Positions 6,690 to 54,856 of a DNA stretch of 64,000 nucleotides are shown here, one piece after another (position 1 is the first letter of the stretch; every line of letters starts with the position of its first letter). The DNA comes from Minisyncoccota bacterium (lineage in GTDB: Bacteria > Patescibacteriota > Minisyncoccia > Phycocordibacterales > Phycocordibacteraceae): contig JAGOSG010000002.1 in NCBI GenBank assembly GCA_018062445.1, positions 60,674 through 124,673 of the forward strand. The letters run 5' to 3'. The position numbers and the translations under genes were made by a program. The notes beneath the pieces were generated by a model. It was not told the DNA's origin. It was given only the letters and a program-made list of their open reading frames with translations, and did not search any database.

Positions 6690-6959
6690 GTCAGGCGCAT
6701 AGTACATTCGCTATAGTTGCTCTACAAACTTTTACCACGACTGTTTCCACCAATGACCTTTGGGGCAAAGAACGACGATTGTTCGTGGCGTTGAACGCTG
6801 TGGACTCAACCTCTTCTCAAAGCGGAATGAACAAGTTGGGCAACAAAACCCTACCGTTTCTTTCTTCGCTTTTATTTTTTCATTATGTGCCATGGTGTAA
6901 ATTTTATGATTCGCTCACAAATCCTTTAGTACTTTACTCCTAAGAATTGGGAAATGCCA

Positions 6960-7145
6960 AGGGCGCTCTAGGATTCGGTCACAGCCCATGCGCACACTTG
7001 TGGTCATAGAAATTTAGCTCTAGGATTCTCGCCTTACAGGCGCAGTACGGGTTTCGCATTCACTTCGCTAGACGCTCGTTCATAAACTCAACCGCATTCG
7101 AATCCTAGACGCAAGGCAAGCAGATGCCTTGCTAGCGCGCACCAG
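6960..7145. repeat. cluster of partial copies of the tRNA-Ile 3' end (pseudo-tRNA fragments / possible integration scars)
   Basis: gcgctctaggattcgg (about 6963), agctctaggattctcg (about 7015) and, on the plus strand, ttcgaatcctag-[25-nt hairpin acgcaaggcaagcagatgccttgct]-agcgcgcacca (7093-7144). All replicate the T-arm/acceptor/CCA of the bona fide tRNA-Ile at 7182-7257, but the T-stems cannot pair. Confidence 0.4.
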
Positions 7146-7149
7146 CAAT

Positions 7150-7180
7150 AAAAACGCCCGCCTTGGGGCGGGGTTTATTA
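7150..7180 (-). terminator. bidirectional intrinsic terminator hairpin downstream of tRNA-Ile
   Basis: aaaaaCGCCCGCCttggGGCGGGGtttatta: GC stem flanked by A/T runs on both strands. Confidence 0.5.
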
Positions 7181-9175: not shown

Positions 9176-9607
9176 TAAGATCTCATGCCTCCAATTGAAG
9201 GGCACGAAATCAATACACGGAACAGAAGAAAAAGAAGAAAATCTTTTATCTTCGGATCTTTTGATTTCTTGGCTCTTGATTACTACTTACTTTTTTGTGT
9301 TTTACGATTGGCTCCTATGCTAGTCGTAAAACTTACTGGTCTTCGTACTTTTACGTACGTATTCAATTTTCAAAGATCTCTGTGGTATTCGGGCTTACGC
9401 CCTCACACGACTGCACTCGCTCGGAAATGAAAAATAAATTTTCCTTCCCCTCACTCGCTTGTCGATAAAAAAAGCCGAAGCTTTTTCTTTACTCCGGCAT
9501 ACGGGTGAATCGTCTTTCGTTGAATCAGTTTGTTCCCATATGACAAATATAACCGCATGCCACAGCAAGCGTTTGTCTATACTACTCCCCCGCCCCAAAG
9601 CAGTCAA

Positions 9608-20310: not shown

Positions 20311-20423
20311 TGTTCTGGCGATTAGCTACTCTCCCCTTTCGAGTACCATCGCTACAACCATGCTTAACTGCCGAGTTCGGAATGGGATCGGGTGTGACCA
20401 CGGCGTCAAATCACCAGAACACA
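20311..20423 (-). rRNA. rrf: 5S rRNA
   Basis: Revcomp: TGTGTTCTGGTGATTTGACGCCGTGGTCACACCCGATCCCATTCCGAACTCGGCAGTTAAGC...GATGGTACTCGAAAGGGGAGAGTAGCTAATCGCCAGAACA. Matches the 5S helix I / loop C consensus. ORF 20051-20401 is spurious. Confidence 0.75.
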
Positions 20424-20489: not shown

Positions 20490-23920
<3,431 letters not shown>

Positions 23921-23974
23921 GAGGAAGCTTGAAAACCACATAACGATTCTGTTCAATTACGAACAGTGATTTTT

Positions 23975-31800: not shown

Positions 31801-32372
31801 GCACCTTGTGGTGAAAGCGAGTTTGCTGGTTGTGTACCTGCTGCGACAGCAAGGCCAGTACCTGTTGGTGTTGTCACTACTGGAGTGGAACCACCTGAAG
31901 TCTTGCCGAATGCTGCGCGAGAGATTGCACCGAAGTAGCCAGCTGCAGGAGAAACTCCCGCTGCCTTCTGCCATGCGATAACTGCAGTCACAGTCTGGGA
32001 ACCGAAGTAGCCAGTTGCGCCTGCTGGAACCGAGTAGCCAGCTGCAATGAGTGCCTTCTGAAGACAAGTTACATCGTCACCTTTCGAGCCAACCGTGAGG
32101 TTTCTCGTGAAGGTACAACCGCCTGTCATTGAGCCGCCAGTCGAGCCTCCTGTTGGAGCTGTCCCATTGAGAGACGCACTAACGTTCGCAATAGTCGAAG
32201 CGTCAGCACCGAATGACTGCAAGAGAGAAACGATAGCTGAGATTTGTGAACTTGTGAGCGTTGCGGCTTCTGCCTTAGACGCTGTGAAAGTGAATGCAAA
32301 TCCAGCTACCAACGAAACTGCAACGACGATCGCCGCAACTTTCGTGAGAGAACTGTTTACAATTGAAGTCAT
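28878..32372 (-). CDS. large (1164 aa) secreted/surface protein: signal peptide, peptidoglycan-binding (PG_binding_1-like) domain, roughly 1000-aa Thr/Ser/Gly/Ala/Val-rich beta-rich low-complexity region
   Basis: N-terminal hydrophobic signal; GSKGDDVTCLQKALIAAGYSV...TGYFGSQTVTAVIAWQKAAGV (PG-binding motif LQxxL...VxxFQ); remainder nearly devoid of Lys/Glu, unlike other proteins here. Confidence 0.6.
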   Translation of the reverse strand: MTSIVNSSLTKVAAIVVAVSLVAGFAFTFTASKAEAATLTSSQISAIVSLLQSFGADASTIANVSASLNGTAPTGGSTGGSMTGGCTFTRNLTVGSKGDDVTCLQKALIAAGYSVPAGATGYFGSQTVTAVIAWQKAAGVSPAAGYFGAISRAAFGKTSGGSTPVVTTPTGTGLAVAAGTQPANSLSPQGASRVPFTRFTLTAGADGDVVVNGVTVQKDGLGQDAAFAGIVLIDESTGLQLGIAKTLNSNHQTVVGGTFTVAKGTTKTFLLAGNMNSSLTSYVGEAPGIALVAVNTSATVSGSLPIVGAHNTNNNTLTVGSITLNTSNAFASNSNQTKEIGTTAYKSTGLRLTAGSAEDLRLKSVRWNQTGSVSSTDIANVMTVVNGTAYPATVSADGKYYDTNLGSGVVIPKGNQVDLYVQYDIVGAGAANRTVVFDVDKTTDIYATGETYGYGVSPAVGASSVPTSRGTITITSGTPFVYSTQVTVSGASITSIGKANEVPAQNIAINLPNQPLGGYVVDLKGEAMTVQSTVFTIASTTGSGTGLLTNLTIVDQNGAVVAGPVDGVYASATTQTATFTDSITYKVGRGVYTLRGKVASNIGNGGTYIVTTVPSSGWTNVKGETTGNTISLSSNGTFTMNTMTVKAGAVAVGRATSPASQNITAGGSQTLFVNFQYDATQSGEDVRFSSIPTVLTFATGAVTDLTACAAYDGTTQLSTGSNVVNPSGTSGATQTFTLDNPVTVAKGTVKTIGIKCNVSGSAANNGTFAFDAGAASAYTFTGATSGTTITGTDTSDSAVTMTVAAGSATVALDASSPGFTLVSAGSTDVVVGALKFRASNEAVNLTKVGLTLTNTASSSSSDLVKATIWNGATKVGEAYFSGSNASATSTLTSIVSLPKNTDVTLTIKADINNVGTGEAVAFSGHLLAVDYLNSEGTGASSGITISPTGSSASSGVRIMKSFPVFALDSTVNGTTGLADGRLMRFKVTADAKGPLGITQFALNLATTTASVTNVTIYGFTDSGYSQAISGISTSGDLQATDDATVPGTGNVVVGVTNSGGTATSIQIPAGGTRYFEVRGSVSGSATGAAVTTKLLGSSAFPSTAAAVGANPLLMTSSTGVDSATNTFVWSPNSTTTAVRADQDWTNGYGVSGLPAGGLFATRSH

Positions 32373-41092: not shown

Positions 41093-41899
41093 CTAGCTAG
41101 GAATACTGAAAAGCCGAAGGGCGTTTTGGACGGTAGCCTCTCTGGCTACCTCTTCTGAAATGCCCCGAATTGAGGCAATAGCCCCAACAATGTACTTCAC
41201 ATATAAAGGCTCATTTCTTCTCCCTCTAAAAGGGTTCGGGGTGGCATAGGGGGCATCAGTTTCAGTCATGAGCATCTCGAGTGGTGCAAACTTCACCACC
41301 TCATCGTATTCGCGAGCAAAAGTGAGAACGCCCGTGAATGATGTTGTGAAGCCAATGTTGTAAAAACGCCTCGCTATGTCAACGGTACCCACAAAAAAAT
41401 GAATGTTCCCTCGGAGTTTTTCACCTACCTCTCTCTTTTTCGATTCCAAAATGGCAAGCATGTCGAGATACGTGTCGACAGTCCCTCGCGAAGGCCTGCC
41501 ATGAATCATTAATGGTTTGTCGTATTTAATTGCAAAATCAATATGCTTCTCAAACTCACGCATCTGGCGTTTCTTGGCGACAGCGATATCGCCCGTAATC
41601 CGAAAATAGTCGAGCCCACACTCTCCTACCCCGACAACCTTTGGATTTGAAACAAGTTCTTTGTATTCGCTCTCTGAAAAAGTTTCTGACTCAGTATCGT
41701 TAGGGTGAAGTCCGATCGTCGCAAAAAATCCTTCCTTCCCTTCTCCAAATTTAACCGCATCTTCTGATGTGGCTTTATTAACACCAACAGTAATAGTCCA
41801 TACAGACTCGTCACGCATACGTTGAAGCACCTCTTCGAGGTCTTGGTCGTAGTCCTTAAAAGTTATGTGAGAGTGGATGTCGAAATACTTCGGAATCAT
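41093..41899 (-). CDS. TatD-family metal-dependent hydrolase / DNase
   Basis: 268 aa; FDIHSHI..., ...GVGECGLDYF..., ...METDAPY TatD motifs. Confidence 0.8.
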   Translation of the reverse strand: MIPKYFDIHSHITFKDYDQDLEEVLQRMRDESVWTITVGVNKATSEDAVKFGEGKEGFFATIGLHPNDTESETFSESEYKELVSNPKVVGVGECGLDYFRITGDIAVAKKRQMREFEKHIDFAIKYDKPLMIHGRPSRGTVDTYLDMLAILESKKREVGEKLRGNIHFFVGTVDIARRFYNIGFTTSFTGVLTFAREYDEVVKFAPLEMLMTETDAPYATPNPFRGRRNEPLYVKYIVGAIASIRGISEEVAREATVQNALRLFSIPS

Positions 41900-43353
41900 G
41901 TAAGTCGTGGAAATAGATTTTCTGGTTTTTTGTTACTGACAATTGCACTCAATATAATTTTTGCAGTATTAGGCATTATGGGAGCTAAGTGAACAGCAAT
42001 CACCGCAAGCCGGTGCACGAGCTCAAAAATATCTTCCTTTGCTGCCTGCCTCCATGGACCCTCTTCTATTTTTATCTTTTTGTACGGCTCTTGTGTTGTC
42101 ATAAATTCATCGCTCGCAGCAACAAGACTGAAAATGAATTCTAAGCCGCCATTGAAATCGAAGGCATTAATTTTTTCACCAAAAACCTTCTCGAATACAA
42201 ACTCCTCTTTCGTTGGTGACACAGGAGACAGATGCTCCTCTGAGAGCTTCATTATTCTTGCAACAAGGTTTCCAATTCCATTTACTAACCCTGCCGTATA
42301 CCACTCATCAAGCTTCTCCCATGTAACATCCGTGTCTTCAGTTGAATGTACGTGACGGAGTAAAAGATACCGCGTTGCTTCAGTTCCGTATTTTTGAACG
42401 AGTTCATATGGACTAATGACATTGCCGATAGATTTGGACATCTTTTGTCCACCAGAATTTATAAAACCGTGGTAGAAAACTTGGTCAGTATTTTTAATGT
42501 CGGCAGACATGAGCATCGCTTGCCACATGAGCGATTGAAAACGCACTTGATCTTTTCCTGCCATCTGAAGCGTGTGCCCTTCTTCCCAGAATTTTTTGAA
42601 ATTCCCTTCTCCGTCGTCGGGCCAGCCAAGTGTCGAAATGTAATTGATGAGTGCTTCAAACCAGACATACATCACTTGAGTGTCATCGTTAGGAACAGGA
42701 ACACCCCACGTGAGCTTGCTCTTCTCTCGAGAAATACTAAAATCCTCCAGCCCTTCCGTGGCAAAATTTATGGCTTCAATCCTACGCCATTCGGGAATTA
42801 TGACATTGGAGCGATTCAAATATTCAAGTAATTTCTCTTGGTATTTCGAAAATTTGAAGAAATAATTTTCTTCTTTTAAAAGTTGCGGAGCTGTTTTATG
42901 AATGTGGCAAAGATCATCAATTATTTCTTTTTTGGTTAAAAACTTTTCACACCCTACGCAGTACAAACCCTCAAACAGCTTCTTATAAATGTCACCCTTT
43001 GCCATACATCGCTTCCACATCTCCTCAGCTGCGAGCTTATGCTGTGGGCTCGTAGTGCGAATAAAATGCAAATCATCAGAGAGACCTAAGGTTCCTTTCA
43101 ATCTTTGAAATTCGTTCGCATAGTAATTAACATACTCCTCTGTACTCTTCCCTGCCTTCTGTGCGGCTTCGTATATTTTTTGTCCGTGCTCATCCGTACC
43201 AGTGTTAAAAAATACTTCTTCACCCACAGAGCGTCTAAAGCGAACGAGCGCATCAGCTTGCACAAGCTCTAACGCAAACCCGATGTGTGGGTCGGAATTC
43301 ACATAAGGAAGCGTAGTGGTGAGATAAAAGGTGCGCATCGAACTATCAATCAT
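41896..43353 (-). CDS. metG: methionyl-tRNA synthetase (short form)
   Basis: 485 aa; PYVNSDPHIGFA (HIGH), zinc knuckle CVGCEKF, KMSKSIGN (KMSKS). Confidence 0.9.
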   Translation of the reverse strand: MIDSSMRTFYLTTTLPYVNSDPHIGFALELVQADALVRFRRSVGEEVFFNTGTDEHGQKIYEAAQKAGKSTEEYVNYYANEFQRLKGTLGLSDDLHFIRTTSPQHKLAAEEMWKRCMAKGDIYKKLFEGLYCVGCEKFLTKKEIIDDLCHIHKTAPQLLKEENYFFKFSKYQEKLLEYLNRSNVIIPEWRRIEAINFATEGLEDFSISREKSKLTWGVPVPNDDTQVMYVWFEALINYISTLGWPDDGEGNFKKFWEEGHTLQMAGKDQVRFQSLMWQAMLMSADIKNTDQVFYHGFINSGGQKMSKSIGNVISPYELVQKYGTEATRYLLLRHVHSTEDTDVTWEKLDEWYTAGLVNGIGNLVARIMKLSEEHLSPVSPTKEEFVFEKVFGEKINAFDFNGGLEFIFSLVAASDEFMTTQEPYKKIKIEEGPWRQAAKEDIFELVHRLAVIAVHLAPIMPNTAKIILSAIVSNKKPENLFPRLT

Positions 43354-44408
43354 TTCAATTCAGCGAGTTCACGGGTTTTTGATTTTTCTATATCGGTCAC
43401 AAACTCTTGAAGTGCGGCCGCTAGAGGAACGGCAAGAAGTATGCCGTAGAAGCCTGCAAGCTGTCCTCCTGCAATCATTGCCAAAATAACCATGAGCGGA
43501 GGTACTCCCACTACTCGCTTCACCACCAAAGGATAAATAAGGTTTGATTGAAGGAGGTTAATAACAAGAAAGCCTCCTGCAACAAAGAGTGCAAGCTGGG
43601 TTCCTCCTGTCGTTGCCCCTATGATAACCGCAAGCGTTCCTGAGACGAGCGAACCAAACATAGGAATAATTTCTACACAGGCTGCAAAAATAGCAATAAG
43701 AAATGCGTACGGAACTTGAAGAATAGAAAGCCAGAGGTAGCCTAGTACACCAATGATGAGGGAAAGAATGAGTTGTCCTTGCATCCAAAGACCAATCTTA
43801 TGACGGGATCGCTTCCATAAATCAAGTGCGTAGTGCTGATGCTTCACTGGTATAACAACCTTGAGAAAATCGTCCACACCTGTTTCTTGAAATGCAAAGT
43901 AGATCGATAAAATGATTATCAAAATAAAAGAGATGATACCGCCAAAGATACTGTACACAGCTTGGAGGGCTCCTTGTCCGGTCGGGATAATGAAACTTTG
44001 CAATTGTGTCAGGAGTGCTGCAGAAAATTCGTGAGGAATAAATGGTTGGAGTGCACTCACCGTAGAGCCTCCGAAAATACTATCGATACGGAGGGAGCTC
44101 AAGAATTGCGGAAGATCAACAATAAACCCTCGTGCTTCTTCAACAAGAGGTGGTAACAAAAGATAAATGATTCCCAAAAATACACCGACAATAAGGGCGT
44201 AAATCGAGAGCACTGCAACGGCGCGAGGGAAACGCTTCTTCACAAACCAATGCACACCTGGTTCTACTGCCGAGGAGAGGACAATAGCAGTGAGGACAAT
44301 AAGAACAAGGTCTCTGAGAAAGAAGAGCAACCATAAGAGTAGACCAATCCACACCACTGTCCAAAAAGAACCGGGCGTGATGTTAATAGTGAGAGGCCGA
44401 GTGTCCAT
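43350..44408 (-). CDS. AI-2E family transporter (UPF0118 / PerM-like permease)
   Basis: 352 aa, about 8 TM helices, typical length and topology; overlaps metG start by 4 nt. Confidence 0.55.
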   Translation of the reverse strand: MDTRPLTINITPGSFWTVVWIGLLLWLLFFLRDLVLIVLTAIVLSSAVEPGVHWFVKKRFPRAVAVLSIYALIVGVFLGIIYLLLPPLVEEARGFIVDLPQFLSSLRIDSIFGGSTVSALQPFIPHEFSAALLTQLQSFIIPTGQGALQAVYSIFGGIISFILIIILSIYFAFQETGVDDFLKVVIPVKHQHYALDLWKRSRHKIGLWMQGQLILSLIIGVLGYLWLSILQVPYAFLIAIFAACVEIIPMFGSLVSGTLAVIIGATTGGTQLALFVAGGFLVINLLQSNLIYPLVVKRVVGVPPLMVILAMIAGGQLAGFYGILLAVPLAAALQEFVTDIEKSKTRELAELK

Positions 44409-44428
44409 GTGGCTATTCTAGCACCACT

Positions 44429-45763
44429 CTATTGTAGATACAGAGATACACCTCCTGCCACCATTTCTATTGCCGTATCGATAGGCATTCGCTCTTGTGA
44501 GCCAGTGTCTCTGTTTCGCACCGTAACGGTATCTTTTTGTTCAGGGTTTTCGCCGAGAGTATCGAAATCAATAGTAATGCACCACGGTGTACCTATCTCA
44601 TCTTGTCTACGATACCGCTTGCCAATGTTGCCATTATCGTCCCACATAACCTGAGGCACCTTCTTTTTAAGTGCCGTGTATACTTCTCGCGCTTTCTCTA
44701 CAAGCTCTGGCTTATTCTTCAAAAGAGGAAATACCGCGGCTTTGATGGGAGCTATGTGAGATGGAAATGCAAGGTAAACACGCGTATCATCCCCCGTCAC
44801 ATCTTCCTTATACGCACTCGCGAGAATTGCGAGCACGGTACGGTCAACACCAAGCGATGGCTCAATTACATGGGGAGTAATTTTTGCGCCTTCTCCATCA
44901 GAATATTTCAACTCAACAGTTGAACCTTTCTCGTGCGCAGAAAGATCAAAATCACCTCGGTACGCTAACCCCCAGAGTTCACCTCGTCCGAAAGGAAAAT
45001 CGAATTCAAAATCGATAGTCTTTTTACTGTAGTGCGCCAAGTCCCCTGCCTCTATATCTTTAGAGTGAAAAGAATCCATTGATAAACCACACGCTTCTGC
45101 AAAGTGCACCATACCTTTTCTCCATTCCTCAAAAGCACCCTCCCATGAATTTTCATTAACAAAGTATTCAAGTTCCATCTGCTCAAACTCACGTGAACGA
45201 AATACAAAGTCACGAGGTGCAATTTCATTTCTGAATGCTTTGCCAATTTGCGCTATACCAAACGGTAGCTTTGGATGAAAGGTATCAATAATATTCTTAA
45301 AGTTCACAAAAATGCCTCCAGCGGTTTCAGGTCGAAGATATACGACTGAAGACTCATCTTCAGTAGCGCCCGCATGTGTCTTAAACATCATGTTGAACTG
45401 GCGCGCTTCGCCGAGCTCACCCTCACACTCAGGACACCTCTTCCCACTTTCAAGATGATCGGCACGAAAACGTCGTTTACATTTTTTACATTCAACCAAC
45501 GGATCAGAGAAACCAGAAACATGCCCGGACGCTTCCCACGCTTTTGAATTCATTAAAATTGCAGCATCAACGCCGTATACATCATCACGGCTATCAACGA
45601 ACATCCGCCACCAGAGATTCTTTACATTATTCTTCAGCGCAACACCTAACGGGCCATAGTCATAGGTGCCTGAAAGACCTCCATATATCTCCGAGCCTGG
45701 AAAAATAAAACCTCGTCGCTTTGCAAGCGATGTAATCTTCTCCATCAGTCCTTCTTCTTTTTG
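44429..45763 (-). CDS. glyQS: glycyl-tRNA synthetase, class II dimeric (eukaryote/archaeal-like)
   Basis: ...MEKITSLAKRRGFIFPGSEIYGGLSGTYDYGPLGVALKNN... N-terminus; class II motifs; ORF-track start at 45841 overlaps the upstream gene, so the Met at about 45763/45742 is preferred. Confidence 0.85.
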   Translation of the reverse strand, partial: QKEEGLMEKITSLAKRRGFIFPGSEIYGGLSGTYDYGPLGVALKNNVKNLWWRMFVDSRDDVYGVDAAILMNSKAWEASGHVSGFSDPLVECKKCKRRFRADHLESGKRCPECEGELGEARQFNMMFKTHAGATEDESSVVYLRPETAGGIFVNFKNIIDTFHPKLPFGIAQIGKAFRNEIAPRDFVFRSREFEQMELEYFVNENSWEGAFEEWRKGMVHFAEACGLSMDSFHSKDIEAGDLAHYSKKTIDFEFDFPFGRGELWGLAYRGDFDLSAHEKGSTVELKYSDGEGAKITPHVIEPSLGVDRTVLAILASAYKEDVTGDDTRVYLAFPSHIAPIKAAVFPLLKNKPELVEKAREVYTALKKKVPQVMWDDNGNIGKRYRRQDEIGTPWCITIDFDTLGENPEQKDTVTVRNRDTGSQERMPIDTAIEMVAGGVSLYLQ

Positions 45764-45809
45764 CATTGAATGATTGTATCCTCCCCAAAAACTAAAAGCT
45801 ATGCCCAGT

Positions 45810-47663
45810 TTATGGCACCACAACACCTCCGCTCGGTACACCTGAAGCTGAGCCAGTTGTTAATGGTCCTGCCGTAGCTTCAATCTGACCTCTCACAAAT
45901 CGGTCATAGGCAGACACTCGCTGACTACCGACTATCGTTGGTACATTTCCTACTTGAGTAAGAGACGGGGTCATTCCTACTTTGAATGAAGCATTTTTTG
46001 TTTGCCCCCCTGCCACATCTCCAATAGTCCAAGTGACAATACGGCCAGAGGCATTGAAAGAAATATTTGACCCAGCTTCGGGCGCAATGAAGCGCACATA
46101 ACTTGGCAATATCGCACTCACAGAAGTATTGGCTAATGCATTTGCCGAATTCAAAACGATCCAGGTAACGGTGTAGGTTGTTTCCTTATCGGCCTTTGGT
46201 GATACAGGTCCCGCCATATTCGTTATCGATGGAGAAAGCGTTACATCTGTTGCAACAACGGCATTTGTTGTAGCGGATGACTTAACGATAACAGGAACGT
46301 TTGATTCACTTTGTCTCTCTGCCTCCACATTAACCGACAGGCGCACAGTCGAATTTTTAAAGTCGCCCTTATTTAAAGGAAGTGTCTTGAATGAAAATGA
46401 AAGTGTCTCCGAGTCCCCTGGGGCAACATTTGAAAGATTTGAATTAGTTGCCTTACTCCAAAGTATTGAGGAATTATTTGAACTATAGAATCCTTTTTCT
46501 GCTTGTACCGTACTTCGATCTAAAATAGCCCCGTCTAAGGTAAGTGTGATGGCAACATTTTGAACCTTCACTGGAAGATTGTTTGTCCATGTCACCTGTC
46601 CTTGCACTTCTCGTCCACGAATAATTGTGTGTGTGTCAGAAGTAGAACCTTCAAGCGAGAGTGCGACGGAAACGAAAGGCTTTGTTACGGTAAGTGAAAG
46701 TTCAGACGCCGCGAGCGGAGCTATGATTGCATCACTATTATCTATCTTCTGAGTTCCCGTGTTAAAACGAAGCACTCTGCTCTCGCCATCTTCACCAACA
46801 AAAACACCTTTCACTTCCACGGTGCGTGTACCGCCTGCTTCTATGTCTCCAAGTGCCCACGATGCAGTGCCTACCGTAGGCGCTGGTTTTGAAGATTCAA
46901 AAGAAAATCCTGGAGGATAATTTGCGACAAGAAGCATATCTTTCAAAACCCCCGGAGCGTTCGATACTACCGACACGGAGAATGTCACAGGTTGTCCTGA
47001 CACTGCCTCCTTGAGGGCATCAATAGTAATAGATGCTGGCGACTGATTAACTTTTGTGACATACGTAGTTTCGCTCACAAAAATAGCATTCGAAGAAGGT
47101 ACACGATATTCCGCCGAAGCTTTAATAGAGAGATCCTGCCCTGACTCACCGAAAACAACAGCACGGATTGTACGATTAATACTCTCACCAGATTTAATAG
47201 TCCCTAGCGACTCTCGAATGCGTGGAAGTTCACGAGAAATATCTGTATCTGACCGCGTACCTGCGGGGAATTCTATAATTAAGTCAGTGAGTTCCATCGG
47301 CACAGCATTTCTGTTTGTTATAACAACCTGCAAAGAAAGCGTGCTTCCGGCACCAATTTCTGTCGGGCCAGTCACCTGAACATCGACGTTCTTAGTTGAG
47401 ATTGTGTTATTGCCAGCAAACAAAATTACCCCCGCGACTGCAACAGCGAGAAAGAAAAAAATAACCGAGCCACCAAAGAGTATTTCAGGGATCTTCATAC
47501 GTCGCCCCTTTGGCCTAGCCGACACATCACCTCCTTCCTGTTTCTGCCATCCCTTAGGAGCGCGCGAACTGCGTGAGAAAAGGGTTGAGCGATGAATGCT
47601 TCCATCAACTAACCCGCTGTCTAGTTTTTTTGAAAGATTTTCGAGCGCACCGTTGTCAGACAT
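45810..47663 (-). CDS. hypothetical membrane-anchored extracellular protein (617 aa, beta-rich, Thr/Ser/Val-rich repeats)
   Basis: Cytoplasmic N-tail, single TM (IPEILFGGSVIFFFLAVAVAGVILF), then repeated roughly 100-aa segments (..TV.V.GVFVGE..) suggestive of tandem Ig-like/DUF11-like domains. Confidence 0.45.
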   Translation of the reverse strand: MSDNGALENLSKKLDSGLVDGSIHRSTLFSRSSRAPKGWQKQEGGDVSARPKGRRMKIPEILFGGSVIFFFLAVAVAGVILFAGNNTISTKNVDVQVTGPTEIGAGSTLSLQVVITNRNAVPMELTDLIIEFPAGTRSDTDISRELPRIRESLGTIKSGESINRTIRAVVFGESGQDLSIKASAEYRVPSSNAIFVSETTYVTKVNQSPASITIDALKEAVSGQPVTFSVSVVSNAPGVLKDMLLVANYPPGFSFESSKPAPTVGTASWALGDIEAGGTRTVEVKGVFVGEDGESRVLRFNTGTQKIDNSDAIIAPLAASELSLTVTKPFVSVALSLEGSTSDTHTIIRGREVQGQVTWTNNLPVKVQNVAITLTLDGAILDRSTVQAEKGFYSSNNSSILWSKATNSNLSNVAPGDSETLSFSFKTLPLNKGDFKNSTVRLSVNVEAERQSESNVPVIVKSSATTNAVVATDVTLSPSITNMAGPVSPKADKETTYTVTWIVLNSANALANTSVSAILPSYVRFIAPEAGSNISFNASGRIVTWTIGDVAGGQTKNASFKVGMTPSLTQVGNVPTIVGSQRVSAYDRFVRGQIEATAGPLTTGSASGVPSGGVVVP

Positions 47664-47821
47664 CTAATCAGGGTATAGCGTTTAGTGCTCAGCGTCTAGG
47701 GTTTTAAAGAAAAGAAAAAGGAACTTTCTTGTCATATGATCCCTGCGGATCCGACGAAGCTGGTCCCTTCGGACACGACGAAGCGTCGCCTATACGCTAA
47801 ACGCTACCCACTAACCACTGC

Positions 47822-48406
47822 TCACAGTCCACTTTCAGAAATAGCCTCGTTAATAAGGCGAACAAGTGTGCCCCGTGATTCACGCACCGCTTTCAAAGTT
47901 GGCATATCGTACGAAATATCTAAAAACAACTTCATTATAGGATCCTCTCGCACATACCCTAATGCTGCGAGTACCCGAAGTACCACAATGCATTCCGCTT
48001 CAAGCACATACTCCTCATCGATGCTTGGGATGATGCGAAAGAATCCAAACAGCGCACTAAAAAGATACGGATCACTGCCTTCTCCCCGAATAAACTGCCT
48101 AACTATTGTGATAACCCGGGCCGTAACTTCTTGAGCTTTTGTATTACCTGAAAGTGCAAAATGCGAATTCTCAGTTTTTGTAGCACCAATAACACGCCAC
48201 ACATCACGACCTTTCACCAAAACAAAAACGCCCGTTGTCCCAACCTGTAGGTGCGGGCGAAGCTTTGAGCGTTCTTCACGGGCACTTTTAGCGAGAGCGG
48301 AAACAAGTCCTAACGAGTCCGTATATATAGAAATACGCACACTGCCCTCTCCGGCTGAGCGCCTAGCAACTATAATTCCTCGAGCTGTTACTTCACGAAC
48401 GGACAT
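47822..48406 (-). CDS. recO: DNA repair protein RecO-like
   Basis: 194 aa; N-terminal OB-fold pattern GIIVARRSAGEGSVRISIYTDSLGLVSALAKSAR...SKLRPHLQ; short relative to canonical RecO. Confidence 0.45.
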   Translation of the reverse strand: MSVREVTARGIIVARRSAGEGSVRISIYTDSLGLVSALAKSAREERSKLRPHLQVGTTGVFVLVKGRDVWRVIGATKTENSHFALSGNTKAQEVTARVITIVRQFIRGEGSDPYLFSALFGFFRIIPSIDEEYVLEAECIVVLRVLAALGYVREDPIMKLFLDISYDMPTLKAVRESRGTLVRLINEAISESGL

Positions 48407-51400
48407 TGAACCTAAATGTCATCCCATCAAACACCAATTCATTCGTACCATTACCTGATTCTCTTGATGAGAGTCTGGTGGCAGTACTGAGAGTATGCCA
48501 ATGCTTTTCTAAAAACTTCTCTATGTCATCACTCTGAACAAACACCAATGTTGCCGCCTCTTTTGGTGTAAGTCCTGCCTCTTTGCGAAGTTCTTGAATG
48601 AAGCGAATTACTTCGCGCACATTACCTTCCTCTTTCAACTCATCTGAAATATCAGTATCAAGTATCACTTCATCTTTCGATAGCGCTCCGTCGATGACAA
48701 CCTCCTTCACATTGAGCTCATCTTTTATTAATTGCAGAAGCTCTACTCTTCCTGCTAACAGTTCACTATTCACTGTTATTTTTGCAAGTGGTTGTCTCAC
48801 TTTTATATCCACCTTCTGCCTCGCTTCGAGCCCTCGCGATGCAATGCGCCTGACTTCCACCATTGCTTCTTGAAGTGGTGCGTCAGTAGAACCCGTGCGT
48901 GGCCACTCACACAAATGCACGCTCTCTGGCATGTCTTTAATTTTCACTCTCTGGTAGGCGCTTTCGGCGACAAACGGCATGAAAGGTGCTGATATTTTTG
49001 CAAAAATTTCTATAACGCTACGAAGTGTTTGAAGTGCGTCTCTTGCGTCAGCCTCTTCCTCTTTAAAGCGATCGCGAGAACGCCTGAGATACCATGTCGA
49101 CAAATCGTCCACAAAAAGAGTAAGTGGGCGCGTTGCCTTATCCAACTCATAGGATTCCATTCCCCTCTCAACTTCTCCAATAACTTGATTCAATCGTGAA
49201 AAAATCCATCTATCGAGAGGGTGAGAACTTGGAGACACTCCGTGCTCCAAGTCTTTATAGAGCTCATAGAAAGAGACGACATTCAAAAATCGTCCGATGA
49301 GTTTCGACGCGACTTCTCCCACTCCCTTCTCTGAAAAATTTAAATCTTCTGCCTTCATTAAAGGTGACGCGAGGAGGTAGTACCGAATAGCATCTGCGCC
49401 ATATTTCTCGAGCACGGTGAGTGGGTCAGGGTAATTTTTCAAACGCTTCGACATTTTTTGCCCATCTTCTGCCAAAACAATGCCGTTCACGATCACATTC
49501 TTATAGGTTGCTTTGCCGAAAAGCCCCACCCCCAAGACAAGGAGCGAATAAAACCAACCTCTTGTTTGATCCAATCCTTCTGCAATAAAATCTGCGGGGT
49601 AGCCACGAGATTTTTTGAGCCAGCCTGGTTTTGGGTTAAAGGTGGAAAGATTCTCAAAGGGGTAATGATTCTGAGCATACGACATTGAGCCTGACTCAAA
49701 CCAGCAATCAAAAACATCGTGTACACGCTCAAGCCTCGTGCCATCGGAGTCTATAAGCACTACCTCATCGATATATGGGCGATGGTAATCAAGTTCGTAA
49801 TTTTCGTTGTGAGGGATAGGAGTGAAAGGAAGGCTCACTATTTCTGCAGGTGCAAGCATGGCGTGATCGGCAAGAATAGATACCGCCTCCTTTGCAGTGC
49901 TTCCTTTTGAAACCGCAGTGAGCGCGGCTACTGGCCAACCATGCGAAACAAACAATATATTCTTCCCTGCATATTTGTGCTCACATTCATATAAAAGTGC
50001 ACCCACACGACGACGCATGTCATTGATACTTTCCCCTTCTTCGGGACCTTTTTCAAAAAGCGGCGCAATGTCTTTAAAGTGCTCTGCCCACTCGCGGTCA
50101 AGTCGACCATTAAAAACACCGTGGTTGTATTCGTTCAAACGCGAATCAGTCGACATGGCCGACACATCGAGACCAAGAACTTCGCGTGCTATTTCAGCAG
50201 TTTGAGTCGCACGCAAAAGTTCCGAATGAATGATGATATCTATGTGTGTCCCTAAATTTTGGGCAGATTTTTTTGCCTCCGCCTTTCCATACTCGGTGAG
50301 AGAAATACCGTCGTCAGGTTTATAACTTATGATTTTCTTAACATTCTTTTCCGATTCTCCATGACGCATCGCAAAATATCTGTTACCAGATTTTTTCGTA
50401 TGAGATTTCAATTCATCAAGTGAACCGATGAAAATGTTTTCTTTCGTTTTGTGATTGCGCCATACAGGAATTGGTGCACCCCAGTACCGAGCGCGTGAAA
50501 TTGCCCAATCCCTAGCGTTTAAAAGCCAGTTTCCAAACCTCTTATCCCCCACTTCTTTTGGTACCCAGTTTATTTTTTTATTTTCGGCAACAAGCTTGTC
50601 TTTAAATTTCGTTACCTCTACAAACCACGATGATGATGCGTAATTTAAAAGCGGCGTATCACATCGCCAACAATGCGGATACGAGTGTATAATTTTTTCC
50701 TTTGCAAAGAGCAATCCCTTCCCTGCAAGGTATTTAATAACCGCAACATCAGTTGATTGTGGGTCGTCTTTTGGCTTTGCCTGAAGTCCTTTGAAATCCA
50801 AAACAGCATCAACAAAAAAACCGTCCTTGTCGACGTGGTGCACTATCGGGATTCCCTCTTTTTGCGCGAGCTCCAAATCTTCGGCACCAAATGCAGGAGC
50901 AAGATGTACTAAGCCTGTTCCACTATCCATCGTCACATATGGAGCGTGATACACCTTCCACGCTTTTTCTTTTCCTTTGATGTTGTGATCAGCGAAATAC
51001 GAGAACGGAGGCTTGTATGATTTACCAACAAGTTCACTACCAAGAAATTCTTTCTCTATTTTGTAGTCAACTTTAATTACTTCCAACCTTTCTTTAGCGA
51101 GAATATATTTTTCATTCCCCGCTGAAATTTTTACATACGTAAATTCAGCGTTCACCGCAGCCGCCATGTTTCCAGGCAAAGTCCATGGCGTAGTTGTCCA
51201 TGCAAGTAGAAATGTTCCAGGTTCATCAACAAGCTCAAGTTTTACGGTGACAGAAATATCAGTGATGTCTTTGTACCCTTGCGCTACTTCAAAGTTAGAG
51301 AGCGTGGTGCCACAGCGAGGACAAAGGTGCATTGCTTTAAATCCTTCATACACCAATCCCTTTTTATGAAGATCATTAAATGCCCACCATACGCTTTCGG

Positions 51401-51872
51401 TGTAGGTGGCATCCATCGTCCTATAGTCATTCTCCATATCTACCCATCTACCGAAACGAGGAATAATGGCTTTCCAATCATCCGAATACCGGAGCACGGC
51501 TTTACGGGCAGCTTCGTTGAATGTGGCGACACCTAAAGTTTCAATATCCCGCTTCGTAGCAAGACCGAGCTCCTTCTCTATCTGATTCTCCAACGGCAAT
51601 CCATGGCAATCCCAACCCCACCGCCTTGGCACATGGTAGCCCTGCATTGTTTTGTAGCGAGGAATAGCATCTTTAATGGTGCCTGCGAGGATGTGGCCGT
51701 AATGTGGCAAGCCAGTGGCAAATGGTGGTCCATCATAAAAAACAAACTCCCCTTTTGGAGCCTCCCTAGAAAGGGTTTTTTCAAAAATCTCATTCTTTTG
51801 CCAAAAAGCTAGAATTTCTTCCTCACGCTTGGCGGGTTCGCTTTTAGTATCTCCATCCATAAACTTCATCAC
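48393..51872 (-). CDS. ileS: isoleucyl-tRNA synthetase with an internal histidine-phosphatase-family (PGAM-like) domain insertion
   Basis: 1159 aa; PFATGLPHYGH (HIGH), WISRxRYWG-type AISRARYWGAPIPVW, KMSKRLKNYPDP (KMSKS), C-terminal anticodon-binding region. Residues about 497-685 (nt 49818-50384) carry RYFAMRHGESEKN ... LFVSHGWP, the two catalytic-His motifs of histidine phosphatases. Confidence 0.9.
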   Translation of the reverse strand: MMKFMDGDTKSEPAKREEEILAFWQKNEIFEKTLSREAPKGEFVFYDGPPFATGLPHYGHILAGTIKDAIPRYKTMQGYHVPRRWGWDCHGLPLENQIEKELGLATKRDIETLGVATFNEAARKAVLRYSDDWKAIIPRFGRWVDMENDYRTMDATYTESVWWAFNDLHKKGLVYEGFKAMHLCPRCGTTLSNFEVAQGYKDITDISVTVKLELVDEPGTFLLAWTTTPWTLPGNMAAAVNAEFTYVKISAGNEKYILAKERLEVIKVDYKIEKEFLGSELVGKSYKPPFSYFADHNIKGKEKAWKVYHAPYVTMDSGTGLVHLAPAFGAEDLELAQKEGIPIVHHVDKDGFFVDAVLDFKGLQAKPKDDPQSTDVAVIKYLAGKGLLFAKEKIIHSYPHCWRCDTPLLNYASSSWFVEVTKFKDKLVAENKKINWVPKEVGDKRFGNWLLNARDWAISRARYWGAPIPVWRNHKTKENIFIGSLDELKSHTKKSGNRYFAMRHGESEKNVKKIISYKPDDGISLTEYGKAEAKKSAQNLGTHIDIIIHSELLRATQTAEIAREVLGLDVSAMSTDSRLNEYNHGVFNGRLDREWAEHFKDIAPLFEKGPEEGESINDMRRRVGALLYECEHKYAGKNILFVSHGWPVAALTAVSKGSTAKEAVSILADHAMLAPAEIVSLPFTPIPHNENYELDYHRPYIDEVVLIDSDGTRLERVHDVFDCWFESGSMSYAQNHYPFENLSTFNPKPGWLKKSRGYPADFIAEGLDQTRGWFYSLLVLGVGLFGKATYKNVIVNGIVLAEDGQKMSKRLKNYPDPLTVLEKYGADAIRYYLLASPLMKAEDLNFSEKGVGEVASKLIGRFLNVVSFYELYKDLEHGVSPSSHPLDRWIFSRLNQVIGEVERGMESYELDKATRPLTLFVDDLSTWYLRRSRDRFKEEEADARDALQTLRSVIEIFAKISAPFMPFVAESAYQRVKIKDMPESVHLCEWPRTGSTDAPLQEAMVEVRRIASRGLEARQKVDIKVRQPLAKITVNSELLAGRVELLQLIKDELNVKEVVIDGALSKDEVILDTDISDELKEEGNVREVIRFIQELRKEAGLTPKEAATLVFVQSDDIEKFLEKHWHTLSTATRLSSRESGNGTNELVFDGMTFRFNVRS

Positions 51873-51906
51873 ATACTAACATTTACACTACGAGCTCCTA
51901 CCTAAA

Positions 51907-52089
51907 TTACCGAGGAAGATAACCAGTGCCGTTACATTTTTCACAATACACCTCCCTAAATGCATTAGGGAGGCCGAGTAACCCTCCCTGAAGACATTTC
52001 CCGCGTCCATTACATGCGCCACAAACACGAGTAGTTTCAGTGTGGCGCCGAAAATCAAACCCTCCTGTTTCTTGTCTTCCTTCTGACAT
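51907..52089 (-). CDS. small protein with two DnaJ-type CxxCxGxG zinc-finger motifs (60 aa)
   Basis: CGACNGRGKC and CEKCNGTGY; 35 nt upstream of ileS on the same strand. Confidence 0.35.
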   Translation of the reverse strand: MSEGRQETGGFDFRRHTETTRVCGACNGRGKCLQGGLLGLPNAFREVYCEKCNGTGYLPR

Positions 52090-52108
52090 AACTATCTATA
52101 TAATTAAA

Positions 52109-52134
52109 GAAAACCCCTTCTTTCGAAGGGGTTT
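52109..52134. terminator. bidirectional terminator hairpin
   Basis: aAAAACCCCTTctttcgAAGGGGTTTTgt. Confidence 0.55.
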
Positions 52135-52262
52135 TGTATGTTTTTGTAATTTTTCTTTATGAGTGCACTACAAAACCCCTTCGCTTGGAAAAGCGCTTTG
52201 TAATCTTAATGATGGTCGTGCCTCGTGCCATGTGTTTAAGAATATTCTAAAAACGAACGCTG

Positions 52263-52436
52263 TCAAGCCGAAAATGGAATCTCTATACCCCACTCTTTTA
52301 GTCGAGCTTTTGCGTCAGCTATTTTTTCCGCCAAACTTTTTTTAATATCTTCAGAAGAACGACTAACATTTATCCTTATATCTGGATAACCACGCCTTCC
52401 CAGTCCATCTTCTCTTAATCCTTCATTGTATGTCAT
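52263..52436 (-). CDS. candidate small protein (57 aa), unannotated in the ORF track (<60 aa)
   Basis: Manual translation: MTYNEGLREDGLGRRGYPDIRINVSRSSEDIKKSLAEKIADAKARLKEWGIEIPFSA*; 37 nt downstream of the argS stop, same strand. Confidence 0.2.
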   Translation of the reverse strand: MTYNEGLREDGLGRRGYPDIRINVSRSSEDIKKSLAEKIADAKARLKEWGIEIPFSA

Positions 52437-52472
52437 ACCAATACATACTACTGAGATTATAAAAAAGTTTCA

Positions 52473-54173
52473 CTACATCGCCTCAGGGGCACGGATACCT
52501 AGAATAGTGAGACCATTTTTCATCGTCAACGCAAATGCCTGCGTTAATGCGACCTTGTAAGGAGACAGGGTATCTGTAGAATCAACAATTTTTCCTGCTG
52601 CATACCAACTATTGAATGCGGAAGCGAGCTCTGTCAAAAATGTAGTTATGTGATGCGGTTCACGCTCCATTTGTGCTCGCTCTACTATTTCAGGAAACCG
52701 GTAGAGTACTCGCTCCAACTCGCTAACCTCAGGAATGAGTTCACTGATTTGATATATCAAATCACTTGCAAGCGCGGGTATTTTTTCTGCCCTCGCTTTT
52801 CGAAGAACTGCTTGCGCTCGCACATAGGAGTACTGTAAATACGGGCCTGAATCACCTTCAAATGAAAGCGATGCCTCAGGGTCGAAAATAATATTTTTTC
52901 CTGTCGACTGCTTCAAAATGGAATATTTAATCGCAGAAACAGCAACGGCATCCGCGACATCGCGTTTTATTTCTTCAGACTCAAACGCACGCCCCTCCAT
53001 TTTTGCTAACGCCTTGGCGCGCATATCTTCTATCAATGATTCGCCTGTTATGATGTTGCCCTTTCTTGATGACATCTTTCCGCTCGTTAGCTGCATCATG
53101 CCAAACGCCGTGTGCGTGTACTTCCCTGCCATATCAGGCCACAATTCTGCCATAGCAGCTTCTACCACTTTGAAATAACCATCCTGCTCCACTGCGATTG
53201 TCGTCACATTAAGATCAAATGGGAACGACTGTTGTTTCATCTGAGCCAATCCCAGCTCTTTTGCTTCATAGGTTGGTGTTCCTTTTGAGGTGACAAACAC
53301 ACGGGTATGAAGTCCTACTTTTTCTCCCTTAAACACTATTGCTCCATCACTCTCTTCAAAAATTCCACGGACTTTCCCTTCTTCTACAATCTTAAGACCG
53401 ATACGCCACGCATCGCTTTCAAAAAAATACTTGTCGAATTTTGTTCCAAGAACCAGATATAAGTCCTCAAAGTGTGCGAGTGATGCTTTGCGACCTTTGT
53501 CATATACATCCTGAAGTGATACATCGCCTTCGTAGAGTCTTTTATTAATTGAATCAATCTCGGCTTTCGAGGCAGGGTCGTCTTCATAGGCGGTATTTCC
53601 AATAACATATGCGTCACCGAGGTCTTGAATACTTGAAGGATCAAGGTTATTTTTCTGCAATCCCCAAATTCCTTTTGCCACATGAGGCCCAATGTCTCCT
53701 TGATAGTTAGCGCGATATATATCAGCGCCCGACCACTCAACAAGACGGGAAATAGCTTCGCCAACGGTAGTCGACATCAGGTGCCCAATGTGGAAAGGTT
53801 TAAAGGGATTTGGCTGTGAGTACTCAACAATTATCTTCTTTCCTTTCAAGGTTGCATTACTACCCCACGACTCCCCGCTCTCAGTAATTACTGAGACACT
53901 TTCAGAAAAGAACGGGCGTGTGAGATGAAAGTTAATGAATCCAGCTCCTGCCGTCTCTATCTTCTTAACTCCCTCTATTACCCCAAGGCTTTTCACAATC
54001 TCATCCGCAAGCGCGCGAGGATTCTTCCCAGCTTTTTTTGCAACAGCGAGTGCAATGTTCGTTGAATAATCCCCGTGAGACAAATCCCCTGGGTGCTCCA
54101 ACGCAACCACACCCTCAAGTCCGAGAATCTTTAATGCCCGTTGCAGTGCTTCAATAATTCGCTCAGAAATCAT
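52473..54173 (-). CDS. argS: arginyl-tRNA synthetase
   Basis: N-terminus MISERIIEALQRALKILGLEGV... (ORF-track start at 54248 probably 25 codons too long); PFHIGHLMSTTVG (HIGH); C-terminal DALR anticodon-binding domain (...DALAVSAIKYSILK...). Confidence 0.9.
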   Translation of the reverse strand: MISERIIEALQRALKILGLEGVVALEHPGDLSHGDYSTNIALAVAKKAGKNPRALADEIVKSLGVIEGVKKIETAGAGFINFHLTRPFFSESVSVITESGESWGSNATLKGKKIIVEYSQPNPFKPFHIGHLMSTTVGEAISRLVEWSGADIYRANYQGDIGPHVAKGIWGLQKNNLDPSSIQDLGDAYVIGNTAYEDDPASKAEIDSINKRLYEGDVSLQDVYDKGRKASLAHFEDLYLVLGTKFDKYFFESDAWRIGLKIVEEGKVRGIFEESDGAIVFKGEKVGLHTRVFVTSKGTPTYEAKELGLAQMKQQSFPFDLNVTTIAVEQDGYFKVVEAAMAELWPDMAGKYTHTAFGMMQLTSGKMSSRKGNIITGESLIEDMRAKALAKMEGRAFESEEIKRDVADAVAVSAIKYSILKQSTGKNIIFDPEASLSFEGDSGPYLQYSYVRAQAVLRKARAEKIPALASDLIYQISELIPEVSELERVLYRFPEIVERAQMEREPHHITTFLTELASAFNSWYAAGKIVDSTDTLSPYKVALTQAFALTMKNGLTILGIRAPEAM

Positions 54174-54856
54174 ACTTTCGCCATCATACCTCGCTAAAGC
54201 ATGCCACAAAAAGACTGCACTCTCACCTCTGGAACCAACCAAGAACACAGGAGGGTTTATCGTGACTTACGACCCCAGCTATATTTATTTTTGATTCGCC
54301 AGGCAATATCGATTTTCCGCATCCCCTGCATACTGGGCAATGCTCGACACGAATACCTGTTGATTTTTCTTCTGAGGACCCAATCATTCCTAGAAGCATA
54401 CTGAAATTCAACTTGGTAAGTGGCCACTCTACAATGACAGGGAGTTGCCCATGATTTTTTTCTTTCATATTTTTTTTTTACTCTTGTACATAATAAGTTT
54501 GGAGATCTTTTATCTCACATCGAATTTCTCAACAGTTTCTTTGACCATCTCCTGTAGCTTCTTAATCACCCCTTCTTTACCTATTTCCCTAATAAGCTTA
54601 GCTATTTCAACAGCATAGAAGGTGATTTCAAGTGGAGGATTTTCTTTGTTTTGTTGTTCCATAGTTTTAGATTGAATGTGTAAATAAGAAAAAACAGCCT
54701 CGTTTGAGACTGTTTGGGAAATTTCGTTATGTACAAAAACTCGCAGACAATCTCAAACAGAATGTCTACGGCGACGCACCTGAATTAATACAACATGTGT
54801 ATTCATAGAATTAATACTAACAACCATTTTAGTTAAGTCAATAGCCGTAGATACCA

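Follow-up and report, generated by a model that had tools for sequence, protein, structure and literature searches.

The gene ileS lies on the minus strand at positions 48393 to 51872 of the window, by which we mean the whole 64,000-nucleotide stretch of contig JAGOSG010000002.1 of a Minisyncoccota bacterium, and it reads as one stop-free open reading frame (ORF) of 1159 aa in which a histidine-phosphatase domain is nested inside an isoleucyl-tRNA synthetase (IleRS). All features of the gene described below are on the same strand. The product scored above the NCBIfam cutoff for ileS (TIGR00392, 896.7 bits; cutoff, 621.4). The N-terminal part of the synthetase (residues 1-489, 50406 to 51872) holds the first half of the Rossmann core, the CP1/editing domain, and the connective peptide as far as GSLDELK. 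Its HIGH motif PHYGH (51693 to 51707) and editing motif WTTTPWT (51180 to 51200) are intact, and WAISRARYWGAPIPVW occupies residues 456-471 (50460 to 50507). The C-terminal part (residues 687-1159, 48393 to 49814) comprises the PHNENYELDYHRPYID junction, the second half of the Rossmann core, KMSKR, and the anticodon-binding and C-terminal domains. Its landmarks are the HRPYID junction (49767 to 49814, with HRPYID itself at residues 697-702), DCWFESG (49689 to 49709), DQTRGWF (49551 to 49571), an intact KMSKR (49443 to 49457), and LDRWI (49203 to 49217), and Pfam matched Anticodon_1 at residues 887-1030 and DUF5915 at residues 1069-1156. With the ileS equivalog score over its cutoff and the HIGH, KMSKR, and editing motifs kept, the host synthetase appears intact. 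Because the closest solved chains were those of yeast and Candida IleRS, P. megaterium IleRS2, and T. thermophilus IleRS (E 1e-208 to 1e-222), compared with E 1e-72 to 1e-92 for type-1 chains (S. aureus IleRS, 1e-88), the window protein is, judged by sequence similarity, a type-2, eukaryote-like IleRS.

The nested histidine-phosphatase domain (His_Phos_1, branch 1) fills residues 497-686 (49815 to 50384), the envelope given by a hidden Markov model (HMM) of the insert. A sequence-only reading of this DNA had put a phosphoglycerate-mutase (PGAM)-type histidine-phosphatase domain at 49818 to 50384 (residues 497-685), between WAISRARYWGAPIPVW and HRPYID, in frame and free of stops, and the 1159-aa ORF bears out both the position and the frame. 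The Pfam search and structure prediction that it had suggested as checks came out in its favor. Across the whole protein, Pfam His_Phos_1 (PF00300) matched residues 501-662 (104 bits, E 9.9e-30, gathering cutoff 21.7) and tRNA-synt_1 was broken in two around it, the first stretch covering residues 20-497; on the insert alone, PF00300 scored 109 bits (E 2.7e-31), well beyond anything that chance would give. An AlphaFold2 (AF2) model of residues 478-706 was confident (predicted local distance difference test [pLDDT], 91.7; predicted template modeling score [pTM], 0.89), as expected of an independent domain, and Foldseek matched it with a probability of 1.00 to small phosphatases of the cofactor-dependent phosphoglycerate mutase (dPGM)-like fold (TM 0.6-0.75, 23-28% identity). 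The top matches were 4ij6/4ij5, 6s2q, 4pz9, 9mmh, 6e4b, and 1h2e, and the structural neighbors comprised Hydrogenobacter iPSP1, mycobacterial GpgP and related hydrolases, a riboflavin-pathway phosphatase, CobC, Rv3214, and PhoE. Sequence searches agreed with Foldseek, iPSP1 being the best solved match in both.

We located the catalytic residues by alignment and followed them through 120 insert-bearing homologs that were 55 to 100% identical overall. The RHG motif (residues 503-505, 50358 to 50366) aligns to the RHxE motif of 4ij5 and 1fzt and contains R503 and the predicted nucleophile H504. The second phosphate-binding arginine, R554, stands in an S-x-x-x-R motif (50211 to 50213), the predicted general acid E581 in an R-L-x-E motif (50130 to 50132), and the second catalytic histidine, H644, in the VSHG motif within LFVSHGWP (49941 to 49943). 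R503, H504, R554, and H644 were each present in 120/120 homologs, and the remainder of the set was nearly as constant (E614 and R622, 119/120 each; E581, 117/120, with Asp in the other 3; N510, 114/120), as was G505 (118/120). Both catalytic-histidine motifs named in the sequence-only reading are thus where it had put them. With the profile score, an RHG motif, a second histidine, two arginines, an acidic donor, and an alpha/beta dPGM-like fold all present, the domain belongs to branch 1 of the histidine phosphatases. These results indicate that the insert is a complete histidine-phosphatase domain in a surface linker of the IleRS.

Outside the catalytic set the insert varies more than its host. 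Mean column entropy was 2.05 in the insert versus 1.17 in the IleRS body, and mean pairwise identity was 40% versus 65%. Inside one allele class (alleles are described below), the ratio of nonsynonymous to synonymous substitution rates (dN/dS) of the insert was 0.06 and 0.08, and that of the IleRS body was 0.03-0.11, values that support purifying selection on the insert. Variability peaked in the loop after RHG, at residues 582-612, and at residues 658-676. Cap and loop regions shape the substrate pockets in the histidine phosphatase superfamily, though variability there is expected in any family. The near-invariant catalytic residues, the purifying selection, and the confidently predicted independent fold favor the earlier suggestion that the insert may be a moonlighting catalytic module.

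All solved IleRS align to the window protein in two blocks (query residues 15-492 and 694-1063 to chain residues 12-492 and 498-886), so that about 200 residues stand where the solved enzymes have a linker of about 5 residues. The catalytic core of P. megaterium IleRS2 (PmIleRS2) comprises residues 40-168 and 513-632 (PMC10485003), and the insertion site matches about residue 478 of that protein in the alignment; the site therefore lies in the connective-peptide region (CP2/CP3 in the yeast naming), and the second half of the Rossmann core follows shortly after. An insert-less orthologue of 962 aa (P0030) reads GSFEELKRYSVTHELPRNEKGEVDVHRPYID at the insertion point, and the conserved P-H-N that follows the domain has a counterpart in the L-P-[RK]-N of insert-less IleRS. 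On the N side, the linker SHTKKSG (residues 490-496, 50385 to 50405) has a conserved K-K-S-G (K493 in 95/120, S495 in 98/120, and G496 in 97/120 homologs) and varies in length by at most 1 residue, with gaps at position 494 only (17/120); linker lengths are nearly constant among the 120 homologs. In the AF2 model of the full-length protein (pLDDT 89.3, pTM 0.81), the N-side linker had a pLDDT of about 94, and the domain with both short linkers had values of 88-97. Conserved linkers of fixed length and the confident modeling of linkers and domain suggest that the phosphatase domain is docked, not floppy, on the synthetase. GC content and GC skew showed nothing unusual over the insert.

Next, we looked at how widely the architecture is distributed. 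PF00300 was found in 119/120 of the nearest homologs of the window protein and in 117/120 of those of the insert-less P0030, under labels such as Parcubacteria and Kaiser-, Taylor-, and Pacebacteria. A scan of one genome per species recovered the insert with its junctions in at least 442 Genome Taxonomy Database (GTDB) species, with record titles among the matches listed naming Paceibacterota and Adler-, Yonath-, Nomura-, Zambryski-, Vogel-, and Lloydbacteria. When 1.84 billion cluster representatives were searched exhaustively with a profile, 402 clusters came out at E<=1e-30. Public annotation calls the insert-bearing proteins "class I tRNA ligase family protein" or "isoleucyl-tRNA synthetase." The nested architecture is therefore clade-wide in the Paceibacteria/Parcubacteria and not an oddity of one genome. 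Full-text literature searches found no description of a phosphatase-in-IleRS architecture, and no solved IleRS has a domain at this place, in agreement with the earlier statement that this is not a described form of the enzyme.

The survey of relatives, which had also been suggested as a check, identified IleRS without the insert as well. In a neighbor-joining (NJ) tree of IleRS bodies without support values, P0030, P0128, and P0148, which lack the insert, each fell separately among insert-bearing proteins, and their loci are syntenic, with argS abutting ileS and no phosphatase gene between the two. The ileS gene of P0030 is intact and identical in a second assembly, which rules out an assembly artifact. 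Since insert-less proteins nest among insert-bearing ones, in syntenic loci, the domain is dispensable for IleRS function. Lineages with the phosphatase as an adjacent gene fell in three places of the same tree, and whole-locus haplotype exchange through recombination in the conserved flanks would account for such interleaved states. On the contig that carries P0030 (L003), the genes for SHMT, a class II aminoacyl-tRNA synthetase (aaRS), and an AI-2E transporter are each split in two, which suggests frameshift errors or pseudogenization.

Among the matches of the same profile search were also complete proteins, about 190-210 aa long, that share the domain boundaries and start with N-x-Y-[FY]-x-x-RHG. 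One such free-standing protein seeds a family of 318 members, annotated "histidine phosphatase family protein [Patescibacteria]" or "PhoE" and including Staskawiczbacteria. At all five loci examined (5/5), argS is followed by the free-standing phosphatase gene and then by an ileS without the insert (931, 965, 818, 957, and 983 aa), with recO after it; the phosphatase gene is separated from ileS by a 1-nt gap in one locus and by one intervening ORF in two, one of these of the CYTH family. The difference between insert-less orthologues of 931-983 aa and the 1159 aa of the window protein fits the excess of about 150-200 aa claimed in the sequence-only reading. The order argS-(His_Phos)-ileS-recO-CLIPPER was found in L001 and L085-L091 and matches the window, where argS lies upstream (52473 to 54248, minus strand) beyond a spacer (51873 to 52472), a recO-like gene with a RecO_N match overlaps the ileS stop downstream (47822 to 48406, minus strand; syntenic in all loci examined), and a DUF11/CLIPPER surface-type gene follows (45810 to 47663). 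A six-frame hmmsearch of the whole window with the insert HMM found the nested copy only, the argS-ileS spacer holding neither a phosphatase gene nor a remnant of one. Among the loci compared, 83 of 84 with a nested copy had no free copy within 6-10 kb, and the 5 with a free copy had no nested copy. The nested and adjacent states are complementary. The sole insert-bearing locus of the 84 that also has a free copy (L071:11814-12359, 182 aa) has it about 3.8 kb downstream of ileS.

We mapped further insertion sites, of which the sequence-only reading had said nothing, by placing the insert HMM against landmark motifs in IleRS. Site A, between GSxxEL and HRPYID, is that of the window protein and most family members; site B lies between HRPYID and DCWFESG (P0214, P0245, P0300), site C between DCWFESG and DQTRGWF (P0214, P0224, P0298), and site D after KMSK and the stem-contact fold and before LDRWI (P0224, P0255, P0298). 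Full-length IleRS of 1379-1468 aa carry two phosphatase copies, and the IleRS P0214 has one at each of sites B, C, and D, three in all. The incomplete P0154 (1161 aa), a valyl-tRNA synthetase (ValRS) by its best NCBIfam matches, has four, a single copy ahead of DWCISR and a tandem array of three behind it. R503, H504, R554, E581, and H644 are kept in all copies at every site, and within the eight-residue set substitutions are limited to one site-B copy, with Q in place of E614 and R622, and one ValRS copy, with A in place of N510. The P0224 type occurs in six independent assemblies on contigs of up to 1.06 Mb, which rules out an assembly artifact for the multicopy proteins. Copies at sites B to D are about equally far from the site-A and free-standing sequences (Kimura distance, 1.5-1.9), so that they represent old events that NJ does not order. 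Nesting at four sites in multiple copies, operon adjacency in insert-less relatives, and the complementarity of the two states together argue that the link between the phosphatase and ileS is selected and not accidental. Two IleRS combine a site-A phosphatase with other domains. P0212 (JGI, 1066 aa, incomplete) has a Y1/REP-associated tyrosine-transposase-like domain in the editing region (326-472) and a GNAT domain at site C, and P0275 (1395 aa) has at site C (about 737-869) a P-loop AAA_18/AAA_33 kinase-like domain with a weak Zeta_toxin match.

The nested domain is also exchanged between close relatives, another point absent from the sequence-only reading. Over about 23 kb, the DNA of the window and that of the Greene0714_7 metagenome-assembled genome share 93-99% identity, and from about nucleotide 1500 to about nucleotide 2090 of the gene (49783 to 50373 in the window) identity falls to 42-67% (60-nt sliding window), marking a recombination tract; blastn gave no high-scoring segment pair between gene nucleotides 1514 and 2059. 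At the protein level the bodies are 98% identical and the inserts 50%, and a second pair (P0006/P0007) behaves likewise, with 98.6% versus 49% and the same borders. A-type inserts are 91% identical between the two lineages and B-type inserts 86%, and the insert tree, ((win,P0006),(P0004,P0007)), conflicts with the tree of the C-terminal body, ((win,P0004),(P0006,P0007)). Between alleles, synonymous sites are saturated, compared with a dS of 0.14-0.31 in the flanks, and third codon positions are the most changed. Across 44 close pairs, windows of less than 60% identity occurred in the insert in about 55%, in the catalytic core never, and in the fast C-terminal domain in 25-48%. These results indicate that two lineages share at least two old alleles, which are exchanged by recombination at the domain borders. 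Hypermutation by a diversity-generating retroelement (DGR) was rejected as their source; the window holds no second copy of the insert DNA that could act as a template repeat, and the substitution fractions (0.49 for A, 0.54 for C, 0.49 for G, and 0.39 for T) showed no adenine bias.

We then asked to which enzyme class the domain belongs. Its best-scoring NCBIfam match was dPGM_arch, and it fell below all of the dPGM equivalog or subfamily cutoffs (TIGR01258, NF038349, and related models; dPGM_arch, 75.2 versus 225; pgm_1, 34.1 versus 81.7; other dPGM models lower). The free-standing P0276 scored 102 bits against dPGM_arch. An Arg-Arg pair before P-x-GES provides mutase-specific substrate-binding residues in dPGMs. 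In the alignment with S. pombe phosphoglycerate mutase (1fzt), "wRRsydiappnGES" stands against "iaPLfekgpeeGES" of the insert, so that Arg-Arg has become Pro-Leu, and the family consensus has no basic pair at that place. Given scores under all dPGM cutoffs, phosphatases as the nearest structures, and the lack of the mutase Arg-Arg pair, we regard the domain as a phosphatase and ruled out a phosphoglycerate mutase. Of the earlier PGAM-type label, the superfamily membership therefore stands and the mutase identity does not. The phosphatase models were missed as well: CobC (TIGR03162) by the insert (62 versus 162.9) and by free-standing P0276 (99 versus 162.9), and PspA/iPSP (NF045917; 55 versus 350) and SixA (TIGR00249; 34.8 versus 74.5, N-terminal half only) by the insert. 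Other candidate identities were discarded too. An intein or selfish splicing element does not fit, there being no intein/HINT Pfam match and the fold being dPGM-like. A known anti-phage defense system was ruled out by the lack of a significant PADLOC match (PADLOC-DB models gave no match for the insert, P0275, or P0212, and 18 bits, E 4.6e-4, for P0276), and phage origin or carriage was ruled out because the domain was not found in viral contigs.

We consider it likely that the window protein is bifunctional, a working type-2 IleRS combined with an autonomous PhoE/iPSP/CobC-like phosphatase that has been tied to ileS. Residue conservation predicts that the phosphatase is active, and it would most likely follow the canonical mechanism of the superfamily. 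H504 would attack a phosphomonoester to form a phospho-histidine intermediate, with R503, R554, N510, and H644 holding the phosphate; E581 would protonate the leaving group, and water would then free the phosphate. The domain would not be needed for aminoacylation itself, and tethering may serve to fix the stoichiometry of phosphatase and IleRS and to co-localize them. The alleles of the domain diverge mostly in the cap and loops, and close relatives trade them by homologous recombination, for which the conserved domain borders serve as anchors. The substrate is probably a small phosphorylated molecule, for which the best leads are of the phosphoserine type or the nucleotide type. iPSP1 as the best solved match, together with SHMT and the thymidylate cycle in the conserved neighborhood, hints weakly at phosphoserine, and a CYTH neighbor in L089 and a HAD-IA hydrolase by argS in the P0128 locus hint as weakly at a nucleotide or polyphosphate. 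Several points weigh against this bifunctional reading. Every NCBIfam phosphatase equivalog stayed far under its cutoff for insert and free-standing proteins alike, so that no substrate is assignable. Three lineages have lost the domain at the ileS locus, and its role is thus either not universally essential or supplied from elsewhere. Adjacency can last in very compact genomes without a functional link, and the deep NJ trees, which carry no support values, do not fix the order of the nested and adjacent states. The IleRS body is a mosaic too (P0006 versus P0007, dS 0.83 in the N-terminal part and 0.10 in the C-terminal part), so recombination is widespread in these populations and nowhere more extreme than in the insert.

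Other explanations have to account for the same observations. HipA-type kinases phosphorylate GluRS and TrpRS and give a model for a toxin kinase that attacks a synthetase. On that model, the domain would be a tethered countermeasure that keeps the class Ia synthetases IleRS and ValRS working under attack, either by stripping a toxin kinase's phosphate from IleRS or tRNA or by hydrolyzing phosphate or phosphoramidate mimics of the aminoacyl-adenylate, with an arms race driving the alleles and copies. The divergence of the insert in close pairs, set against a catalytic core that never diverges so far, would follow from such a conflict, as would the old alleles shared by two lineages, the variability peaks in cap and loops, the arrays of up to four copies each with the core catalytic residues, and the other modifying-enzyme domains at equivalent sites (GNAT in P0212, P-loop kinase-like in P0275). 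Aminoacyl-nucleotides with a P-N bond occur naturally as aaRS inhibitors, and PGAM5, of the same superfamily, cleaves P-N bonds (PMC6429109). The conserved neighborhood holds no toxin or kinase gene, no PADLOC model matched, and the domain was not found in viral contigs; moreover, cap and loop variability is expected of any family, and recombination extends to the IleRS body. We know of no natural IleRS inhibitor that contains phosphate, and on balance we think a defensive role unlikely. If it were true, an essential translation enzyme would bear on its surface the traces of an arms race, in the form of the multiallelic, recombining, copy-variable domain and the GNAT and kinase-like modules.

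A second alternative, raised in the sequence-only reading with (p)ppGpp as an example and one for which we found no support, is that the domain is a sensor or pseudo-enzyme, binding a phospho-metabolite or alarmone and tuning aminoacylation allosterically without turnover. Its place beside the second half of the catalytic core and its short, conserved, confidently modeled linkers could pass on a conformational change, and a sensor would keep the phosphate-binding residues as well. This idea is weakened by the nucleophile H504 and general acid E581, which are conserved as much as the binding residues, by the free-standing form of the domain in relatives, hard to square with a purely allosteric role, by its presence at four unrelated insertion sites and in tandem arrays, and by its loss without loss of ileS; we give it little credence. 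A housekeeping cofactor-dependent phosphoglycerate mutase joined to ileS by chance would explain the best NCBIfam score (dPGM_arch for both the insert and P0276) and the short monomeric S. pombe enzyme among the sequence matches. It is contradicted by scores far under the dPGM cutoffs, the replaced Arg-Arg pair, and the phosphatases among the top structural neighbors, and multicopy arrays and hypervariable alleles fit poorly with a single conserved glycolytic step, so that we regard it as very improbable. That the domain is a functionless passenger or an artifact, a selfish or neutral in-frame insertion or an assembly chimera that is tolerated, is hardly credible. Patescibacterial IleRS do bear other odd in-frame insertions, such as the Y1-transposase-like domain, and the phosphatase can be lost, but occurrence in hundreds of independent assemblies and species, the low dN/dS, catalytic residues that are near-invariant at every site, and the lack of intein/HINT features or a DGR signature contradict such a passenger.

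The bifunctional protein differs from each of its known relatives in a definite way. Solved type-2 IleRS (8C8U, P. megaterium IleRS2; 1ILE, T. thermophilus; 7D5C/8WND, yeast cytoplasmic) share the whole synthetase body, its motifs, and its domains, but they have about 5 residues at the site and no nested enzyme domain where the window protein has a 190-residue phosphatase and its linkers. The small phosphatases 4IJ5 (Hydrogenobacter iPSP1), 1H2E (Bacillus PhoE), 4PZ9 (mycobacterial GpgP Rv2419c), 6E4B (CobC), and 9MMH (riboflavin-pathway HFP) share the fold, the catalytic residues, and a size of about 190-210 aa; they are free-standing and have assigned substrates, whereas the insert is nested and reaches no family cutoff. 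Members of the P0276 family (e.g., P0367 and P0400 of Staskawiczbacteria) have the same boundaries, RHG start, catalytic set, and argS-X-ileS-recO neighborhood as the insert but are separate genes upstream of an insert-less ileS, and in the NJ tree the free-standing proteins sampled group in a clade of their own. Rv2228c of M. tuberculosis (RNase HI plus a CobC-like acid phosphatase, PRK07238) likewise joins a nucleic-acid enzyme to a branch-1 phosphatase, and PRK07238 was the third-best NCBIfam match of the insert (71 bits versus a cutoff of 326); it is an end-to-end fusion with another partner enzyme, whereas the window protein is nested. NF040702 (isoleucine--tRNA ligase, N-acetyltransferase domain-containing) sets a precedent for a bacterial IleRS with an accessory enzyme domain, though a different one (window protein, 310 bits; cutoff, 1999). 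Synthetases with accessory domains are thus already known, and what appears to be new is a phosphatase, predicted to be catalytically intact, nested in the catalytic region of a bacterial IleRS across hundreds of species. The four sites amount to a natural map of permissive insertion points in a class Ia synthetase, useful for protein engineering, and the alleles show clearly how near-identical genomes of uncultivated bacteria exchange a single domain with precise borders. This piece of Patescibacteria biology is open to direct test with one recombinant protein.

Around ileS we noted several smaller features. The argS-ileS spacer (51873 to 52472) contains a terminator-like hairpin, AAAACCCCTTCGAAAGAAGGGGTTTT, and two small ORFs, annotated in L001 and L086 with lengths of 57 and 61 aa, of which one has a CxxC...CxxC zinc-ribbon motif. 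Rfam gave no T-box or other element near ileS, its only matches in the window being rRNA and tRNA genes. In L089, one of the loci with an adjacent phosphatase gene, an RVT_1 reverse-transcriptase ORF lies upstream of argS (2890-3663), and the CYTH-family ORF between the phosphatase gene and ileS (6570-7160) has a weak match to class IV adenylate cyclases/triphosphatases. In the locus of the insert-less P0128, a 196-aa HAD-IA hydrolase with weak pyrimidine-nucleotidase-like matches lies between SHMT and argS (L092:5500-6090); we set it aside as a nonorthologous replacement of the phosphatase, since it is a generic protein found in one locus only. A small GIY-YIG ORF lies between the genes for dCTP deaminase and thymidylate synthase in two loci (L001:3373-3639 and L086:3406-3675) and is absent from L085, a patchiness in near-identical loci as expected of a mobile, homing-endonuclease-like element.

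Elsewhere in the window, the minus-strand block from 41896 to 54248 is rich in synthetases, with argS, ileS, a class II aaRS (44429 to 45841), and a short MetRS-like gene (41896 to 43353), and it also holds recO, the DUF11/CLIPPER gene, an AI-2E transporter, and TatD. An ORF of 1164 aa (28878 to 32372, minus strand) had a short PG_binding_1 as its single Pfam match and is otherwise uncharacterized. The rRNA genes are all on the minus strand. The 16S gene (7718 to 9178) is unlinked, lying about 11 kb from the 23S with protein genes between them, and the 5S (20313 to 20418) adjoins the 23S. The 23S match (20496 to 23921) spans 3426 nt versus the 2925 nt of the model, indicating about 500 nt of insertion.

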